Assembly: GCA_030390025.1 (NCBI GenBank)
Contig: CM059431.1
Span: forward strand, 130,326,001 to 130,390,000
Length of the DNA: 64,000 nt
Origin: Squalus acanthias
Taxonomy: Eukaryota
Direction of reading: 5' to 3'
A program made the position numbers and the translations under genes. Under the pieces are notes generated by a model. The model was not told where the DNA came from and ran no database searches. It saw only the letters and a program-made list of their open reading frames with translations. Shown piece after piece: positions 2,799-62,660 of the stretch (the first letter of the stretch is position 1; every line of letters starts with the position of its first letter).

Positions 2799-3221
2799 AG
2801 CCGGCTCCTCCCTCGGTGACTGGTGATTCCCTCTCACTCCCGCTCCTTTTTAAACACAGCCACCTCCTCCCTCGGTGACTGGCGATTCACTCACTCCCGC
2901 TACTTTTTAAACACAGCCGCCTCCTCCCTCGGTGCTCCGCGCTGACTGGCGATTCTCTCTCACTCCCACTCCCTTTTAAACACAGCCGCCTCCTCCCTCG
3001 GTGCTCCGCGCTGACTGGCGATTCTCTCTCACTCCCGCTCCCTTTTAAACACAGCCGCCTCCTCCCTCGGTGCTCCGCGCTGACTGGCGATTCTCTCTCA
3101 CACCCGCTACTTTTTAAACACAGCCGCCTCCTCCCTCGGTGCTCCGCGCTGACTGGCGATTCTCTCTCACTCCCGCTCCTTTTTAAACACAGCCACCCCC
3201 TCCCTCGGTGCTCCGCGCTGA
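2799..3221. repeat. GC-rich minisatellite, 69-bp unit, about 6.5 copies (first two shorter, ~57 bp)
   Basis: cacagccgcctcctccctcggtgctccgcgctgactggcgattctctctcactcccgctcc(c/t)ttttaaa recurs with starts at 2912, 2981, 3050, 3119 and 3188. Confidence 0.95.
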
Positions 3222-3339
3222 TTATAATGGGCGGGGAGTATACCGGACGACCGATGTGATACCGCCCACTTTGTTCTACCGCCCAGGATGAATATCTACC
3301 CCATTGAATTAGAGGGAGGTTAGAAAATTGGGGGAATTT

Positions 3340-4940: not shown

Positions 4941-6753
4941 TTGGCTCTCACTGGAGCCACTTCAATTAGAGAAGATAATCAATCCCATCCACAATCAACT
5001 ACCTTACTCTAGTAAAAGTCTGTGGCTTTTAGAAGGCTTCAAAGGGACTTATATCAGATTTTCACTGTCGTGAGTTCTGCTGAGGCCTTTCAAGGGTAAG
5101 AAAGCAGGAATTTCAGCTCCAATATTCTTTTATCCTACGGCAGTCGATGTGCTATGTTGTTTGAAGGCCCATAAGGAATGCAAGAATGGATGCTGAGGAA
5201 CCAAGGTAATGCACTGTAGTTGTAGCTGAGGTCCTTAAGTTTCACAGTGATGTTAAGTCCTGAGGAAAGACACAATGCAGCACATGCTTCCATCAGGGTC
5301 TTCATTGAGCATACAATTGTCATGCAGAAGCAGTGATTCAGATGCCAGGACCGATCAGGGGTGTGCTACCGTCAAGCCCTGCCAAATTCTCAAAAGATAA
5401 TTATAGTCTGCTGTGTCTGCTCAAGTTTGCCCATTGAAGGATCAGACAGGAGAAGAAAGACAGCAGCAACCAGAGGCAGAAGACAACTTGAATTAGAAAA
5501 CAGAAAATTTGTCTGCACAGGCAACCAGCCATTCAACAAGATATCATCAGCTGGTATCTTAAAGATAGAGAGGATGAAGTTTCACTGGGATTCTCCTGCT
5601 CATCTGTCATAACTTCGGTGGAAGAGCTGCCTAATGCATTTTGCCATTTTTCTGGGGTTTTCACAGCTCTTACATTGACGTTACAGTGGACAATCAGGAG
5701 AACCCCCACAGAAATTCACCCCCAAATCTTTAAGTGTCTTATACTCCAATGCACAATAGGCATAGAGTCATAGAATAGTACAGCACAGAAGGAGGCTGTT
5801 TGGCCCATCGAGTCTGCGCCGGCTCTTTCGAAGAGCAATCCAGTTAGTCCCACTTGCCCGCTCTTTCCCCATATCCCAGCAATTTTTTGTCCTTTGAGTA
5901 TTTATCCAATTCCCTTTTGAAGGCTGCTATTGAATCTGTATCCACCACCCTATTAGGCAGTGCAATCCAAATCCTAACCACTCGTTGCGTAAAAAAGTTT
6001 TTCCTCATGTTGCCTCTGGTTCTTTTGCCAATCACCTGAAATCTGTGCCCTTTGGTTATTGATCCTTCAGCTATTGGAAACAGTTGCTCTTTATTTACTC
6101 TATCTAAACCTTTCATGATTTTAAACTCCTCTATCAAATTTCCTCTTGGTCTTCTCTGCTCGAAGGAGAACAACCCCAGCTTCTCTAGTCTATCCACATA
6201 ACTGTAATCCCTCATCTCTTCTGTACCCTCTCCATAGCCTTCATCTTCTTCCTAAAGTGTGGTGCCCAGAATTGGTGCACAAACACCCCGAGGTCACTCT
6301 ATTCTTGCACCCCCTTTAAAATTGTACCATTTAATTTGTATTGTCTTTCCTCATTCTTCCTACCAAAATGTATTGCCTCATACTTTTCTGCGTTGAATTT
6401 CATCTGCCATGTGTCCGCCCATTCCATCAGCCTGTCTATGTCTTCTTGAAGTCTATTACAATCTTCCTCACTGTTAACTACACTTACAAGTTTCATGTCA
6501 TCTGCAAATTTTGAAAGTGTGCCCTGTACCTCCAAGTCCATGTCATTAATGTATATCAAAAACAACAGTGGTCCTAGTACTGTACCCTGGGAGCTCCACT
6601 GTATACCTTCCTCCAGTTTGAAAAACAGCCATTCACCACAACTCTCTGTTTTCTATGATAGCAAAATACTGCGGATGCTGGAAATCCGAAATAACAACAG
6701 AAAACGCTGGAAAAACTCAGCAGGCCAGGCAGCATCCGTGGAGAGAGAAAGAG

Positions 6754-6790
6754 AGTTAACGTTTCAGGTCGATGACCTTTCATCAGAACT
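6754..6790 (-). ncRNA. Minimal type I hammerhead ribozyme-like motif (mirror copy)
   Basis: Exact reverse complement of 7048-7084. Confidence 0.72.
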
Positions 6791-7047
6791 GGGAAGAGCC
6801 GGAAATCAAATAGATTTAAGGCCAGAGTAAAGCTGGGAAAAGGGGGAGGGGATAAAGGAACAAAGGGGGAGATGAAGAGACAATAAGAGACATTCAGCCT
6901 TAATCTGTCACATTAACACCACCTCCAGCCTTGCATATCTCTTAATGTCTCTTATTGTCTCTTCATCTCCCCCTTTGTTCCTTTATCCCCTCCCCCTTTT
7001 CCCAGCTTTACTCTGGCCTTAAATCTATTTGATTTCCGGCTCTTCCC

Positions 7048-7084
7048 AGTTCTGATGAAAGGTCATCGACCTGAAACGTTAACT
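7048..7084 (+). ncRNA. Minimal type I hammerhead ribozyme-like motif
   Basis: AGTT-CTGATGA-A-AGGTC(ATC)GACCT-GAAAC-GTT-AACT: core boxes, 5-bp stem II, 4-bp stem I and palindromic ACGT stem III. Confidence 0.72.
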
Positions 7085-7272
7085 CTCTTTCTCTCTCCAC
7101 GGATGCTGCCTGGCCTGCTGAGTTTTTCCAGCGTTTTCTGTTGTTATCTCTGTTTTCTATCCCTTAGCCAATTTTGTATCCATGCTGTTACTGCCCCTTT
7201 TATCCCATGGGCTTCAGTTTTGATAACAAGCTTATTATGTGCTACCTTATCAAACGCCTTTTGAAAGTCCAT

Positions 7273-8137: not shown

Positions 8138-8220
8138 CATATATACAACATCAACTTCACTGCCCTCATCCATCCTCTCTGTTACCTCATCAAAAACTCA
8201 ATCAAGTTAGTCAAACACGA

Positions 8221-8362
8221 AATAAAAACAGAAAATGCTGGAAATACTCAGCAGGTCAGGCAGCATCTGTGGAGAGAGAAACAGAGTTAATGTTTCAGCT
8301 TGTTGACCTTTCGTCAGAACAGATTTACAGATTTCCAGCATCCGCAGTATTTTGCTTTTGTA
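8221..8362 (-). mobile_element. Short PLE-type insertion with a degenerate hammerhead
   Basis: Similar to 6691-6790. Flanked by ttagtcaaacacga (8207-8220) and ttagtcacacacga (8363-8376); the last ~35 bp are an inverted copy of the element end. Confidence 0.75.
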
Positions 8363-39587: not shown

Positions 39588-39800
39588 GCTCCTTGATGGC
39601 TAGTCTATCCAGTGGGTAACTGAGCTGTAGACACCAGGAAGATTCCAGGTCTGATCTCTGTTTTGTCCTGAGCTAGCTGATCTCAGCTGGAGAGGTGGTA
39701 GGAGCACTACAATTGGCCAAAGTGTTCCTGGGTTAACTTACTGTGGAAAAATCAACCAGGATTCCCACACCAGTCTGCTACTGGGAACCCCGAATGGAAG
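39588..39800 (+). mobile_element. Ancient tRNA-headed SINE fragment
   Basis: actgagc...accaggaagattccaggtctgatc...ctgagctagctgatctcagctgg...ctacaattggcc; shared with 15930. Confidence 0.55.
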
Positions 39801-40031
39801 AGTGTCCTGGAAATCCACAAAGATAAGTGCCGAGGAGGCAAGTCCATTCTGCTAATTCTCATCATAGCATCTAACTGCCTCTTGAATGACAATAGAGTTG
39901 TTGCCACCATGAATGTACATGGAAGACTATTCCAGGTACTAGCGCTCTGAGTGAAAAAGTGTTTCTTGGCATCAGTTCTAAATCTACTTTTTACCAATTT
40001 GTACCCATGCCCCACAGTCATGGTGTAACTT

Positions 40032-40071
40032 TACCTGAAGAAGGGGCGATCGATAGCTCCGAAAGCTTGTA
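40032..40071 (+). ncRNA. Minimal hammerhead ribozyme-like motif
   Basis: TAC-CTGAAGA-A-GGGGC(GATCGATA)GCTCC-GAAAG-CTT-GTA: core boxes, stem II with one G-U pair, palindromic AGCT stem III, 3-bp stem I. Confidence 0.65.
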
Positions 40072-40117
40072 ATTTTAAATAAATCTGTTGGACTATAACC
40101 TGGTGTTGTGCGACTTC
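40032..40117 (+). mobile_element. 86-bp PLE-type insertion (second family) in an old CR1
   Basis: Perfect 14-bp duplication tcatggtgtaactt at 40018-40031 and 40118-40131; contains a hammerhead motif followed by AATAAA. Confidence 0.8.
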
Positions 40118-40889
40118 TCATGGTGTAACTTGAAATAGGATTTTGAATTAATCTATTCTATTTCACGTAGTATCTATAGGCTCAATTTAAACTGGGGCCA
40201 TGTGCAGGGTGGGCAGTGTTGCAGGCCAGGAGGAAAACTCCCACGAGGAGGTCAGCGTGAGGCCTGGGCTCCCAGGCCTCATTTAAATAATCCAGGAAAG
40301 TCTTCTGCCCTAAACTGCAGGAGTGATGTCAGCACTGGCGTTCGGAACCCAAAGGAACAGTCCCCGGCATAAAATTTGCATTGGGCAGAGATTTTAAAAG
40401 CCGATATCAGCGCTGGGAGGGAGAGGCAAGGTTGGGGCTGGGAGGCCCAGTGAATCCTTGCGGGGCCCAGGGGAATGCTCCTGGCCCACAAGACTTCCAC
40501 AAAAAGTGATTTTTAAAAACTTGCCTTGGCCTCTGCTGGTCACTCCGTGACTCCCGCCATGTTGTTGCTGCTGTTGCAACATCATTGGTGTCATCGGGAC
40601 GCAGCTTTTTGATGTAAAGTAAGCCCCAGTATACCAAGGGTGGGTGGTCCTCCCATGTTTAATGAAGGTCAGTATAGTTGGTGGACGTTGAGATGTGGCA
40701 GAACAACACCCCACACCCAACAGTAAATAGTGTCGACGCAAGCAGAAAGTTGCAAAGGGACATTGATCGATTGAGTGAGTGGGTAAAACTATGGCAGATG
40801 GAGTTCAATGTGGGAAAGTGCAGAGGAGTGTTTCTCTCTCCACAGTTGCTGCCTGACCTGCTGAGTATTTCCAGCATTTTCTGTTTTAC

Positions 40890-45259: not shown

Positions 45260-48211
45260 TCATGTCCAAATTCCTGCCCGCTCCCCGTAACCCTTAATGC
45301 CCTTTACTTCTAGGAAACTGTCTATTTCTGTTTTAAATTTAATTAATGTTGTAGCTTCTACAGCTTTTTGTGGCAGCATATTCCATGGACCTACCACCCT
45401 CTGAGTGAAGTAGTTCCTCCTCATCTCAGTTTTGAAAGAGCAGCCCCTTATTCTAAGACTATGTCCCCTAGTTCTCGTCTCACCCGTCATCGGGAACATC
45501 CTCCCCGCATCCACCCGATCCAACCCCTTCACAATCTTATATGTTTCAATAAGATCGCCTCTCATTCTTCTGAACTCCAATGAGTAGAGTCCCAATCTAC
45601 CCAACCTCTCCTCATATGACCACCCCCTCATCCCCGGGATTAACCGAGTGAACCTTTTTTGCACTGCCTCGAGAGCAAGGATGTCTTTCCTTAAGTAAGG
45701 ACACCAAAACTGTATGCAGTATTCCAGGTGCGGTCTCACCAATACCTTGTACAACTGAAGCAATACCTCCCTATTTTTATATTCTATCCCCCTAGCAATG
45801 AAAGCCAACATTCCATTTGCCTTCTTAATCACTTGCTGCACCTGCATACTAACCTTTTGAGTTTCGTGCACCAGGACCCCCAGATCCCTTTGCACTTCAG
45901 TACTCTCCAGTTTCTTGCCATTAAGATAATAAATTGCTCTAGGATTTTTCCTGCCAAAGTGCATCACCTCACACTTTCCAGTGTTGTATTCCATCTGCCA
46001 AATCTCTGCCCACTTACTTAGCCTGTCTATGTCCCCTTGCAGGTTTTTTATGTCCTCCTCATTCACTACTTTCCCTCCCATCTTTGTATCATCTGCAAAT
46101 TTTGATATGTTACACTTGGTCCCTTCCTCCAAATCGTTAATATAGATTGTGAAGAGTTGGGGACCCAGCACTGACCCCTGTGGAACACCACTAGTTACTG
46201 ATTGCCAGTCTGAGAATGAACCATTTATCCCAACTCTTTGCTTTCTGTTAGATAGCCAATCCTCTATCCATGCCAGAATATTACCCCCAATTCCGTGATT
46301 TTTTACCTTAAGCAATAATCTTTTGTGTGGCACCTTGTCAAATGCCTTTTGGAAGTCTAAATACACTACGTCCACTGGTTCCCCTTTATCCACTCTATAT
46401 GTTACTTCCTCAAAGAACTCCAGCAAATTTGTCAAACATGACTTCCCCTTCGTAAAACCATGCTGACTTTGTCCTATTAAATTATGATTATCCAAATGTC
46501 CTGTTACTGTTTCCTTAATAATGGACTCCAAAATTTTACCTACCACAGATGTTAGGCTAACCGGTCTATAGTTACCAGCCTTCTGTCTACTGCCCTTTTT
46601 AAATAAGGGTGTTACATTAGCAGTTTTCCAGTCTGCCGGGACCTTAGCGGAATCCAGGGAGTTTTGAAAAATTATTACCAATGCATCTACAATCCCTACC
46701 GCCACTTCCTTCAAGACTCTAGGATGTAAGCCGTCAGGTCCAGGTGATTTATCCGCCTTGAGTCCCATTATTTTACCGAGTACCACTTCCTTAGTGATTT
46801 TGATCGTGTTTAGCTCCTCTCCCCCTATAGCCCCCTGTTTGTCCAGTGTTGGGATATTCTTAGTGTCCTCTACTGTAAAGACTGATACAAAATATTCATT
46901 CAGTGTTTTTGCCATCTCCATATTTCCCACCATTAATTTCCCGGTCTCATCCTCTAAGGGACCAACATTTACTTTAGCCACCCTTTTTCTTTTTATATAA
47001 CTATAAAAACTCTTACTATCTGTTTTTATATTTTTTGCTAATTTACTTTCATAATCTATCTTCCCTTTCTTAATCAATCTTTTTGTTATTTTTTGCTGCC
47101 TTTTAAAGTTTTCCCAATCCTCTGTCCTCCCACTAGATTTCGCTACCTTATATGCCCTTGTTTTTAGTCGAATACTATCCTTAATTTCTTTACTTAGCCA
47201 CGGATGACTGTCCTTTCTTTTACACCCTTTTCTTTTCAGTGGAATATATTTTTTTTGGAAGTTGTAAAATAACTCCTTGAATGTACACCACTGATCATGT
47301 GTCGTCTTACCCTTTAATCTATTTTCCCAATCCACTCTACTCAATTCCGCTCGCATACCTTCATAGTCTCCTTTATTCAAGCTTAGCACGCTTGTTTGAG
47401 ATCCAACCTTCTCACCCTCTAATTGAATATGGAATTCAACCATGTTATGGTCACTCATTCCAAGGGGATCCTTTACTAGGACATTTTTAATTAATCCTGT
47501 CTCGTTACACAGGACCAGATCTAAGGTTGCTTGCCCCCTGGTCGGTTCAGTTACATACTGCTCAAGAAACCCATCCCTAATACACTCAATGAACTCATCC
47601 TCAAGGCAGCCCTGCCCCATTTGATTTGTCCAATTAATATGATAGTTAAAATCCCCCATAATTATAGATGTTCCCTTATTACATGCCTCAACTATTTCCT
47701 GATTGATACTCCGTCCAATAGAGTTGCAACTGTTCGGAGGCCTATAGACTACGCCCACTAATGTTTTTTTCCCCTTATTATTCCTTATCTCCACCCAAAC
47801 TGTTTCATTATCATGATTTTTTGACCCAATATCATTACTCTGTATTACAGTGATTCCTTCCTTTATTAACATAGCCACCCCACCTCCCCTTCCTTCCTGC
47901 CTGTCCTTCCTGATCGTTAAATAACCTGGTATGTTTAATTCCCAGGCATTGTCACCCTGCAGCCATGTTTCTGTAATGGCCACAATATCATAACCATATG
48001 TAGTTATTTGTGCCATTAACTCATCTATTTTGTTACGAATGCTACGTGCATTCAGATAGAGAACTTTCAAATATGCTTTGTGGCACTTAGTTCCTGCTTT
48101 TTCACTTTTTACCAGTTTACCTTTTACTCCACACACTCTGTCCCTTCCTGCCACGCTCTGATTTGTGATTCCCCTACTGCTACCTATGTCTATGACCCTC
48201 TCTGTTGTCAT
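45260..48211 (-). CDS. CR1 ORF2: APE-type endonuclease plus reverse transcriptase, 983 aa, uninterrupted
   Basis: Endonuclease motifs YLNARS, ITETW, VYRPP, GDFN, SDHN; RT motifs QHGF, YLDFQKAFD, SGVPQGSVLGP, KFADD. Confidence 0.96.
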   Translation of the reverse strand: MTTERVIDIGSSRGITNQSVAGRDRVCGVKGKLVKSEKAGTKCHKAYLKVLYLNARSIRNKIDELMAQITTYGYDIVAITETWLQGDNAWELNIPGYLTIRKDRQEGRGGGVAMLIKEGITVIQSNDIGSKNHDNETVWVEIRNNKGKKTLVGVVYRPPNSCNSIGRSINQEIVEACNKGTSIIMGDFNYHINWTNQMGQGCLEDEFIECIRDGFLEQYVTEPTRGQATLDLVLCNETGLIKNVLVKDPLGMSDHNMVEFHIQLEGEKVGSQTSVLSLNKGDYEGMRAELSRVDWENRLKGKTTHDQWCTFKELFYNFQKKYIPLKRKGCKRKDSHPWLSKEIKDSIRLKTRAYKVAKSSGRTEDWENFKRQQKITKRLIKKGKIDYESKLAKNIKTDSKSFYSYIKRKRVAKVNVGPLEDETGKLMVGNMEMAKTLNEYFVSVFTVEDTKNIPTLDKQGAIGGEELNTIKITKEVVLGKIMGLKADKSPGPDGLHPRVLKEVAVGIVDALVIIFQNSLDSAKVPADWKTANVTPLFKKGSRQKAGNYRPVSLTSVVGKILESIIKETVTGHLDNHNLIGQSQHGFTKGKSCLTNLLEFFEEVTYRVDKGEPVDVVYLDFQKAFDKVPHKRLLLKVKNHGIGGNILAWIEDWLSNRKQRVGINGSFSDWQSVTSGVPQGSVLGPQLFTIYINDLEEGTKCNISKFADDTKMGGKVVNEEDIKNLQGDIDRLSKWAEIWQMEYNTGKCEVMHFGRKNPRAIYYLNGKKLESTEVQRDLGVLVHETQKVSMQVQQVIKKANGMLAFIARGIEYKNREVLLQLYKVLVRPHLEYCIQFWCPYLRKDILALEAVQKRFTRLIPGMRGWSYEERLGRLGLYSLEFRRMRGDLIETYKIVKGLDRVDAGRMFPMTGETRTRGHSLRIRGCSFKTEMRRNYFTQRVVGPWNMLPQKAVEATTLIKFKTEIDSFLEVKGIKGYGERAGIWT

Positions 48212-48249
48212 TTTTATTTTTTGCTCTCTTGAAACCTCCCCCCCACTAA

Positions 48250-48855
48250 TTAGTTTAAAGCCCTCTCCACAGCCCTAGTTATTCGATTCGCCAGGACACT
48301 AGTCCCAGCACTGGCCAAGTGAAGTCCGTCCCAACGGAACAGCTCTCTCCTGCCCCAGTACTGGTGCCAGTGTCCCAAGAAGCAAAACCCATTTTTCCCA
48401 CACCAGTCTTTGAGCCACGCATTCAACTCCCTGATTTTATTTACCCTAGCCAAATTTGCTCGTGGCTCAGGTAGTAATCCAGAGATTATTACCCTCGAGG
48501 TTCTGCTTTTTAATTTGGCCCCTAGCTGCTCAAACTCCCTCAGCAGAACCTCTTTCCTTGTCCTATCTATGTCATTGGTACCAACATGGACCACGACAAC
48601 TGGATCCTCCCCCTCCCACTCCAAGTTTCTCTCCAGCCCACAGGAGATGTCCTTAACCCTGGCACCGGGCAGGCAACACAGCCTTCGGGACTCTCGCTCT
48701 TGGCTGCAAAGAACCCTATCTATCCCCCTAATGATACTATCCCCTACCACTACAACATTTCTTTTTACTCCCCCCACTTGAATGGCCCCCCTTACCACGG
48801 TGCTGTGGCCAGGTTGCTCATCCTCCCTGCAGTCCCCGCTCCTATCCACACAGGG
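48250..48855 (-). CDS. CR1 ORF1 C-terminal SGNH esterase domain (N-terminus lost)
   Basis: VVVGDSII, PGA, VHVGTND and DGLH blocks. The Zn-finger seen at 19090 is missing, so the track's start at 48885 lies in flanking DNA. Confidence 0.88.
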   Translation of the reverse strand, partial: PCVDRSGDCREDEQPGHSTVVRGAIQVGGVKRNVVVVGDSIIRGIDRVLCSQERESRRLCCLPGARVKDISCGLERNLEWEGEDPVVVVHVGTNDIDRTRKEVLLREFEQLGAKLKSRTSRVIISGLLPEPRANLARVNKIRELNAWLKDWCGKNGFCFLGHWHQYWGRRELFRWDGLHLASAGTSVLANRITRAVERALN

Positions 48856-49194
48856 AGTAAGAGCCACATCATACATACCACACATATCAAATGTCAGCTC
48901 CTGATCCCACTATTTCAATACTCCCAGCTGCTGTGCTACTCTGGGTTTTTTTCTTGTTTACCTGCACTGATATTGCAGATTTAGGCACATTCCTTCTTAG
49001 CACTCAATTCCCTCTCTCCTGTTGGGAGATGAAGCTCAACTGGGATTCCTCCCCACAGTCAAAATTACCTTGATGGCTTGAAATTTTGGAATCTTTAAAT
49101 AAAGACAAACTTACTTAATATCTAGATGAACAGAAAATAATTAGAAAGCAGCAAGATATAGACTATTAAAGTCGAGATGTAATGGTGAAACTAT

Positions 49195-59774: not shown

Positions 59775-62660
59775 CAGGTACCGCTAGTACTGACCCCTGG
59801 GGAACACCACTGTATACCTTCCTCCAGTGCGAAAAACAACCGTTCACCACTACTCTCTGTTTCCTGTCACTTAGCCAATTTTGTATCCATGCTGCCACTG
59901 TCCCTTTAAGTCCATGGACTTCAACTTTGCTGGCAAGCCTATTATGTGGCACTTTATCAAACGCCTTTTGGAAATCCATGTACTCCATGTCAACTGCATT
60001 GCCCTTTCTGTTACCTCATCAAAAAACTCGATCAAGTTAGTTAAACACAATTTGCCTTAAACAAATCCATGCTGGCTTTCTTTAATTAATCCACACTTGT
60101 CCCTGATTATTGTTTCTAAAAGCTTCCCCACTACCGAGATTAAACTGACTGGCCTGTAGTTGCTGGGTTTATCCTTACACCCTTTTTTGAACAAGGTTGT
60201 AACATTTGCAATTCTCCAGTCCTCTGGCTCCACCCCCGTAACTAAGGAGGATTGGAAGATTATGGCCATTACCTCCAAGATTTCCTCCTTAACCTCCTTA
60301 ACCTCTCTCAGCATCCACAGTACCATCTCATAGGTCAGCACTGCAGCATGCCTTCAAAAACATACATCCAAGTTTCAGGCCACAGTTGATGGTCCCTGCA
60401 AACTCTATGCTGCGAGGTAGCTGCTGATGTCCTTGCAGCAGATAGCCCATCATATCACAGTATATGCTCCTCTGCTGGCCCTGAGAAGGCAGGTTACCAC
60501 ACTCACTCCCAGGTAGGTTTTCTAGAGTCCGCAGAAATAGTTGATGACATCTTGGCCGATGCGTCCAAACAGGCAATTCCGGCTCTCTCCTCTGATTTCA
60601 CTGTCTTCCCTGCTTGCCATTCGAACTCTCTAATTTCTCAGGTTGAACAGGCTGTTTGCAATCTTGAGTTAGTACAGACAGCCATTCTAGTACTTCCTCT
60701 TTAACAATTTTTATCCCATTCAGGATCTCCACTACCTCCTCTTTCACTATGACTTTGGCAGCATCTTCTTCCTTGGTGAAGACAGATGCAAAGTACTCAT
60801 TTAGTACCTCAGCCGTGCCCTCTGCCTCCATGCGTAGTTCTCCTTTTTGGTCCCTAATCAGCCCCACCCCATTTTATTTATGACCCATTTATTATTTATA
60901 TGCCTATAGAAGACTTTTGAATTCCGTTTTATGTTAGCTGGCAATCTATTCTCATACTCTCTTTTTGCCCCTCTTATTTTCTTTTTCACTTCCCCTCTGA
61001 ACTTTCTATATTCAGCCTGATTCTCACTTGTATTCTCAACCTGACATCTGCCATATGTGCTTTTTTCTGCTTCATCTTACTCTCTATCTCTTTCGTCATC
61101 CAGGGAGCTCTAGCTTTAGTTGCCCTATTTTTTTGCCCCTCGTGGGAATGTAGCTCGACTGTACCTGAACCATTTCCTCTTTAAAGGCAACCCATTGTTC
61201 GATTACTGTTTTGCCTGCCAATCTTTGATTCCAATTTACCCGGGCCAGATCTGTTCTCCTCCAATTAAGTATTTTTACTCTAGATTACTCCCTGTCCTTT
61301 TCCATAGTTAATCTAAACCTTATAATACTATGATCAAATGTTCACCTACTGACACTTGCTCCACTTGACCCACCTCATCCCCCAAAACCAGATCCAGCAA
61401 TGCCTCCTACCTCATTATCTGGAAACGTACTGATCAAGAAAGTTCTCCTGACCACACTTCAGAAATTCTTCCCCCTCTCTGCCCTTTACATTATTAGTAT
61501 TCCAGTCTATATTAGGATAATTGAAGTCCCCCATTATTACTACTCTATAATTCTTGCACCTCTCTGTAATATCCCTGCAAATTTGCTCCTCTATATCTTT
61601 CCCACTAGTTGGTGGCCTATAGAATACACCTAGTAGTGTAATGGCCCTTCTATTATTTCTTAACTCTGTCCATAGATTCTGTCCATGACCCATCCAGGAC
61701 ATCCTCTCTCTCCAGCACTGTAACATTTTCCTTAATCAACACTGCCACCCCATCTCCTTTCTTTCCTTCCCTCCCTATCTTTCCTGAACACCTTATATCC
61801 AGGAATATTTAAAACCCAATCCTGCCCTTTTTTGAGCCAGGTGTCCATTATCGCCATGACATCATATTCCCATGTGGCTATTTGCGCCTGCAGCACACCA
61901 ACCTTGTTTACCACATTGCGTGTGTTTACATACATACACTGTAAACCTGTCTTAAACCTTCTTGTATTCTCTCTTAGTCTGACCCCACCTAATACCTCAC
62001 TATTTCTTTCTTTAGTGCTATCTGTCTCTCCCCATCCTTTGTGCCCTTTGTTTTTCCTTTCTAATGCTACATCCTGATGCCCATCCCCCAGCCAAATTAG
62101 TTTAATCTCTCCCCAACAGCACTAGCGAACCTCTCCGCAAGGACATTGGTTCCGGCTCTGTTGAGGTGCAACCTGTCCAGCCGTCCCACCTCCTCCAGAA
62201 CCGGTCCCAATGTCCCAGGAATCTGAAACCCTCCCTCCTGCACCATCTCTCCAGCCACGCATTCACCTGCTCTATCTTCCTATTTCTATACTCACTAGCT
62301 CGTGGCACAGGGAGTAATCCAGAGATGACTACTTTTCAGGTCCTACTTTTTATCTCTTTCCTGGCTCCCCAAAATCTGCCTGCAGGACCTCATCCCTTTT
62401 ACTACCTATGTCGTTGGTACCGATATGGACCACGACCTCTGGCTGTTCACCCTCCCCCCTCAGAATGTTCTATAGCTGCTCAGTGACATCCTTGACCCTG
62501 GCACCATCCTGGAATCACGTCTGCGGCTGGAGAAACGCCTGTCTGTTCTCCTAACTATCAAATCCCTTACCACTATTGCCTTCCCAATCTTCCTCCTCCT
62601 CCCACCCCCCTGTACAGCTGAACCACCCGTGGTGCCATGGACTTGGCTCTGGCTGTAATC
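59775..62660 (-). mobile_element. CR1 LINE (esterase, endonuclease, RT 5' half), disrupted
   Basis: MDFQKAFDKVPH, NYRPVSL, YRPP...MGDFN and ORF1 VNAWLERWCRREGFRFLGHW. Confidence 0.92.

Follow-up and report, generated by a model that had tools for sequence, protein, structure and literature searches.

An 86-bp hammerhead-bearing insertion in the Squalus acanthias genome as a likely 5'-truncated tail of a Penelope-like retrotransposon

The DNA analysed here, referred to as the window, is a stretch of 64,000 nucleotides from Squalus acanthias (contig CM059431.1 of assembly GCA_030390025.1, positions 130,326,001 to 130,390,000 of the forward strand), and the locus of interest lies between its positions 40018 and 40131. 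Two identical 14-mers (40018-40031 and 40118-40131), whose match can be extended in neither direction, enclose 86 bp that carry a minimal hammerhead motif, an AATAAA hexamer, and a GT-rich end; the original prediction had described a perfect 14-bp duplication around 86 bp, and this description was accurate. The features of the locus, including those assigned to a Penelope-like element (PLE), are as follows.

40018..40031, + strand: left copy of the target-site duplication, identical to 40118-40131 and found as a single copy in the X8 empty site
40024..40031, + strand: eight target bases common to other family copies upstream of the hammerhead; likely 5' microhomology
40032..40117, + strand, 86 bp: insertion, likely the 5'-truncated pseudo-LTR end of a PLE plus part of its tail; skipped in the empty site, high depth
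40032..40071, + strand: minimal type I hammerhead, cleavage predicted; matches a strict descriptor and fits the consensus of Fig. S3 of PMC4209133
40032-34 / 40069-71, + strand: stem I, TAC/GTA, with four pairs if target base 40031 is counted
40035-41, + strand: core CTGAAGA, followed by an extra A (40042)
40043-47 / 40056-60, + strand: stem II, GGGGC/GCTCC, with one G-U pair and an 8-base loop
40061-64, 40064-67, and 40068, + strand: GAAA, palindromic helix III AGCT, and T as H17, respectively
between 40068 and 40069, + strand: cut site, as predicted from the sequence
40078..40083, + strand: AATAAA hexamer in an AU-rich stretch 3' of the motif, ten bases past the predicted cut
40084..40117, + strand, 34 bases: GT-rich end, common to subfamilies; peak depth in bins 40065-40126 in all four runs
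40118..40131, + strand: right copy of the target-site duplication, recognized by its identity to the left copy and by the empty-site joint in X8

Base by base, the insert follows the order that had been claimed for it (TAC-CTGAAGA-A-stem II-GAAAG-CTT-GTA, then AATAAA and a GT-rich end), and inspection of a second hammerhead motif, at 7048, confirmed the stems quoted for that motif (AGTT/AACT, AGGTC/GACCT, and ACGT). The motif at 40032-40071 has the CUGANGA and GAAA cores, an NUH cut site, and helices I and II, as well as an extra base between positions 9 and 10.1 (A40042), the pair G10.1-C11.1 (G40043-C40060), and a palindrome at 15.2-16.2. A strict hammerhead descriptor, drawn up after the motifs had been seen, matched the window three times (7052+, 6786-, and 40035+, the former two being the two arms of an inverted pair of the 7048 family), as compared to a mean of 0.01 and a maximum of 1 match in 100 dinucleotide shuffles. 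Folding energy was unremarkable (z of -1.2 for the motif and 0.0 for the whole 86 nt), and Rfam gave no match at gathering score in the whole window and no hammerhead family at E values up to 10 in 39900-40250; an ordinary folding energy and the lack of an Rfam family are expected, because the motif has almost no helix III. Two weak Rfam microRNA matches (E values of 0.85 and 3.7) were taken as chance, and a MAFFT alignment of the four motifs in the window left the helices out of register. Since helix III could form only between two copies, via the AGCU palindrome, almost no activity is predicted for the motif on its own; the AGCU duplex was calculated at -2.5 kcal/mol, and a competing six-base AAGCUU pairing (-4.3) would sequester the cut site. 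As to the "poly(A) signal" that had been claimed, the AATAAA hexamer is present, and the term is otherwise only a label, as the insert has no poly(A) tail; no such hexamer was found after the motif of the 7048 family, and no variant at 40078-83 appeared among the contig rows listed. The insert contains no ATG, and stops occur in all three frames over 40024-40121.

Elsewhere in the window, LINE fragments are abundant, and a tandem array of about six 69-bp units occupies 2811-3231. An uninterrupted 1004-aa frame on the minus strand (45260-48274), by eye a LINE endonuclease plus reverse transcriptase, and a 219-aa frame upstream of it (48250-48909) are probably a young LINE. The 7048-family insertion (6643-7160) is an inverted pair inside a LINE fragment; its arms (6681-6897 and 6941-7157) are 98% complementary, it is flanked by its own exact 14-bp repeat (6643-56 and 7147-60), and a further extension of about 25 nt on the left arm only corresponds to the optional PLE tail, and near 59850 a paralogous copy of the LINE contains the target of this insertion once. 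Heavy 5' truncation, inverted pairs, and an optional tail of 30-40 bp are standard PLE features (PMC8557442), and the 7048 insertion also shows standard features of this kind. Fragments of the same family lie at 8218-8356 (-), with a decayed hammerhead and a 27-nt tail piece set ahead of the hammerhead, and at 40831-40885 (+).

Contigs of four of the 18 listed runs (X1, X5, X6, and X8) were aligned on 39600-40500 at 80% likeness. The 86 bp are a true insertion with a target-site duplication, because a contig of a relative (organism D, run X8) joins 40017 directly to 40118, so that 40018-40131 shows both a duplication and an empty site. This contig, the one contig from one run that provides the empty site, is 1828 nt long and aligns to 39600-40017 and 40118-40261; it differs at 29 of the 562 bases (94.8% alike) and skips exactly 100 bases, with 14 letters that fit both sides and hence a single target copy. 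The filled site is present in organism A (X1), where a flank contig reaches 40052, and the empty-site joint was not found in the contigs of X1 or of X5, the latter having holes in the flanks. In X6, a contig of depth 2 crosses the left junction with only 10 letters inside the insert, a weak hint that organism B carries the insertion. Exact 14-mer repeats spaced 40-300 nt occur 12 times in the window, 11 of them within one tandem array and the twelfth being the 40018/40118 pair; 100 dinucleotide shuffles gave a mean of 0.07 and a maximum of 2.

The inserted sequence belongs to a very abundant family. Summed contig depth, which is no copy number, was 1.8-4.2 million over the insert versus 13.6 in the flank in run X1 (about 1e5-fold), which suggests thousands of copies even if a 31-fold overcount from overlapping short contigs is granted. 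The stem II variant of the 40035 copy had a summed depth of 1.4-1.9 million at 40048-54 in X1 versus 283 in X8, while the tail was abundant in both runs (3.4 million in X1 and 0.76 million in X8, at 40084); it is therefore likely that the subfamily of this copy expanded after the split from organism D. Within the 64-kb window the family has one copy only, and it showed no BLAST similarity to the 7048 family. Scans with a tail pattern found nothing in viral contigs, metagenomes, or prokaryote genomes; eight metagenome loci retrieved with a shorter pattern were dropped, as they showed no likeness beyond the pattern and no BLAST match to the window.

Where other copies of the family end was read from the loose ends of contigs, of which 24 of 824 rows were listed, with contigs breaking at every branch point; among these rows, 3' ends pile up near one place and 5' ends spread. 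At the 3' side, X1 had 104 and 63 contigs with loose ends behind 40120/40121 (median 255 letters, agreement 0.40-0.43), while X5 had 90 and 48, and X8 41 and 25, behind 40118-40121. These loose ends share an extension of about 8-10 bases and then diverge over hundreds of letters (agreement 0.40-0.50), which suggests that the commonest 3' end of the family lies about 10 bases beyond 40117 and that a longer tail is optional; the shared extension is longer in X6, by guess an RNA run, and resembles an optional PLE tail. The 40035 copy thus stops about 10 bases short of the commonest 3' end, and the locus combines a hammerhead near the 3' end with the lack of poly(A) and an optional tail extension. 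The first bases of the right target copy (40118-40121) resemble the continuation of the family. A short match at the 3' junction may, speculatively, have helped priming, which would explain why the 40035 copy ends about ten bases early. Other copies (X1 and X5 contigs) repeat the last 20-45 tail bases head to tail (window positions 40087-40121); the six go-back joints among those listed lead from 40108/40121 back to 40087-92, as from repeated priming.

The 5' loose ends listed were few, i.e., 6, 16, 12, and 13 contigs at 40024, 40051, 40055, and 40056 in X1, and 8, 10, and 12 contigs at 40028, 40051, and 40055 in X5, and they were short (median 14-25 letters); few, spread, and short 5' loose ends are expected for a high-copy sequence that continues upstream, and stem II differences between subfamilies dilute the 5' counts. 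No row at 40031-33 was among those listed. A multi-copy contig (depth 49) has 18 more letters ahead of 40033; two listed contigs of other copies cease to match at 40032 (X5 record 13) and 40033 (X1 record 5), as would be seen if these copies belonged to a subfamily with a different upstream sequence or shared a 5' end. Agreement among the loose letters is poor ahead of 40024 (0.62) and of 40028 (0.50), as it would be for unique flanks. Other copies share 40024-31 with the target. X1 record 4, an 81-nt multi-copy contig (depth 73) whose loop II differs, covers 40024-40104 with 4 letters over, X6 record 18 aligns over 40025-40084, and the unique X1 flank contig extends to 40052, 30 bases past 40022, the point from which 31-mers would be shared; the orientation of minus-strand contig coordinates is the analyst's own reading. 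At equal base frequencies, the chance of an 8-base match is 1.5e-5 at a fixed register and about 0.005 over 300 stopping points. The 5' boundary is consequently ambiguous between 40024 and 40032. The left target copy ends in 8 bases that other copies also carry, and in the simplest reading the 5' end was likely set by this 8-base match with the target, which coincidentally lies at the edge of the ribozyme; a target preference for pseudo-LTR-like sequence would also explain the match. Ribozyme cleavage set neither end, since the predicted cut (40068/40069) lies inside the insert, and for the same reason uncleaved RNA was likely copied.

We conclude that the insertion is very probably a dead-on-arrival, 5'-truncated copy of the 3' end (the hammerhead of the pseudo-LTR and the tail) of a Penelope-like retrotransposon of very high copy number, whose membership in the PLEs is judged from the motif, the tail, and the duplication. 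By analogy with published work on PLEs, the GIY-YIG endonuclease of the element would cut the two strands 14 bases apart, reverse transcriptase would start inside the tail of the uncleaved element RNA, without poly(A), and about 90 bases would be copied before early termination. The upstream target end, with its 8 last bases matching the element just 5' of the hammerhead, would then anneal to the cDNA and prime the second strand, which would fix the 5' junction at the edge of the ribozyme by sequence coincidence. For an anole element, reverse transcription has been shown in vitro to begin at two internal sites in the tail of unprocessed RNA, and insertion persists in hammerhead mutants (PMC11167929). 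Target-site duplications of 8-10 bp and a microhomology 5' junction have been described for PLEs in a rotifer study (PMC3846280); the 14-bp duplication seen here is longer, and the 7048 family of the window also has 14 bp.

Of the two interpretations offered by the original prediction, a second PLE family agrees with our data (the motif fits the published PLE hammerhead consensus, copy number is very high, and the two families lack BLAST similarity), while a minimal non-autonomous ribozyme element is disfavoured, as other copies extend beyond the 86 bp both 5' and 3'. The latter idea, put in full, is that a discrete element of about 90-110 nt (hammerhead, AATAAA, and tail) forms its own transcription unit and depends on PLE protein, supplied in trans, for its mobility. 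PLE pseudo-LTRs are capable of mobilising unrelated sequence in trans (PMC3846280), non-autonomous PLE relatives are known (PMC8557442), and the insert does begin exactly at stem I; the match ends of two other-copy contigs at 40032-33 and the heterogeneous letters before 40024/40028 would also suit such a unit. We nevertheless consider it quite improbable, given that the best-supported rows include none at 40031-33, as opposed to 41-104 contigs at the top 3' place per DNA run, that loose parts are short at the 5' side and long at the 3' side, that the 8-base target match accounts for the 5' point, and that the 40035 copy is short at its 3' end too; the cut site marks neither end, and no whole-unit head-to-tail joint is among the rows listed. 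Loop II contains a 9-mer that resembles a B box except for one mismatch, but this loop varies between subfamilies and no A box lies upstream of it within the insert. A pol III promoter was rejected: a search with box consensuses gave only this B-like 9-mer, which sits in a variable loop, and an A-like 12-mer farther downstream, within the target copy. It is unlikely, if slightly less so, that the subfamily spawns ultra-short copies starting at the 5' edge of the hammerhead, either as a self-propagating mini-element of about 100 nt or through a hard stop of reverse transcriptase at the folded ribozyme; a preferred start at this edge would mean that PLE hammerheads help set insertion length.

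A monomer of a non-LTR retrozyme, i.e., one unit released from a tandem hammerhead repeat, closed into a circle, and reinserted, would agree with the short go-back joints in the family and with the available text of a preprint (bioRxiv 10.64898/2026.07.22.740005), which gives consensus lengths down to 51 bp, dispersed monomers, and retrozymes in one sampled cartilaginous fish. We regard this origin as very unlikely, as the six listed go-back joints repeat only the last 20-35 tail bases and none links the 3' end to the hammerhead start, and as the insert is colinear with longer copies rather than a permuted circle, with the cut site at neither end; moreover, the animal retrozymes described in the accessible text of PMC7229834 consist of tandem units, each about 300 bp long, with canonical type I hammerheads, while neither tandem hammerhead units nor a second copy was found in the window and no unit-length joint was among those listed. 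It is hardly credible that the direct repeat arose by chance around an old repeat fragment, or that the other organism lost exactly this stretch by deletion: even though the empty site comes from a single contig of a single run, shuffled sequence rarely yields such repeats (mean 0.07), the high-depth stretch is bounded precisely by the repeat, and the stem II variant is nearly absent from the organism without the insert.

Differences between the 7048 and 40035 motifs had been put forward as covariation inside one window; the comparison involves two unrelated families (n = 2), and the difference reflects the known variety among PLE families and is no test of covariation. Large sequence variety among hammerhead families inside one genome is described in the portion of PMC4209133 available. 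Within the family itself, loose-end consensuses of other subfamilies have stem II as GGAGC/GCTCC (G-U to A-U) with position 7 free, and CAC before the core occurs in other subfamilies alongside an A>G variant that is common at 40071 (29% of the depth in X1 and 98% in X8), the two sides of stem I being unphased.

No description of the 40035 family was found in the literature searched; Repbase and Dfam lay outside this search, and the family may already be catalogued. By itself the insertion has little significance, as many animal genomes contain thousands of single minimal hammerheads from truncated PLEs, according to the available text of PMC4209133, and it would be surprising only if 5' ends truly piled up at the ribozyme. 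It is, nonetheless, a clean worked example: a relative shows the empty site, the duplication measures 14 bp, the ribozyme is uncleaved, and the 5' junction likely involves an 8-base microhomology. It is also a possible lineage marker, and the thousands of young copies could help to map where PLEs prime and how their 5' ends are joined, about which little is known so far.

The closest known counterpart is the minimal hammerhead (min-HHR) of metazoan PLEs (Cervera and De la Pena 2014, PMC4209133), compared here on the basis of the accessible text and Fig. S3. The 40035 motif fits the consensus line of that figure at each position and shares the CUGANGA core, the extra base 9/10.1, the pair G10.1-C11.1, a short helix I, a loopless palindromic 15.2-16.2, and an AU-rich 3' flank; the authors name the extra base, the G-C closing pair, and the palindrome as hallmarks. 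By eye, AAUAAA stands just after the motif in at least 8 of 56 rows of Fig. S3, and the painted turtle row has the same G-C-U-U cleavage end; by contrast, none of the 56 rows is from a cartilaginous fish, and helix II has 5 bp here. In the same text, most min-HHRs are single motifs ascribed to truncated PLEs, with undetectable cleavage for single min-HHRs and low cleavage for dimers. PAc, a Poseidon-type PLE of Anolis carolinensis (Frangieh et al. 2024, PMC11167929, compared from the text at hand), likewise has no 3' poly(A), has alternative 3' ends in the tail downstream of the hammerhead, and inserts from uncleaved RNA; however, the PAc reading frame starts at stem II, whereas the 40035 insert has stops in place of a frame. 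Animal non-LTR retrozymes, as far as the available parts of PMC7229834 and bioRxiv 10.64898/2026.07.22.740005 describe them, resemble the insert in being short and non-coding, with type I hammerheads, kinship to PLE pseudo-LTRs, and dispersed monomers, but they are defined by tandem hammerhead units and circular RNAs, while the present locus has one copy of a minimal motif. The insertion is thus likely of a known kind, a recent 5'-truncated PLE tail.
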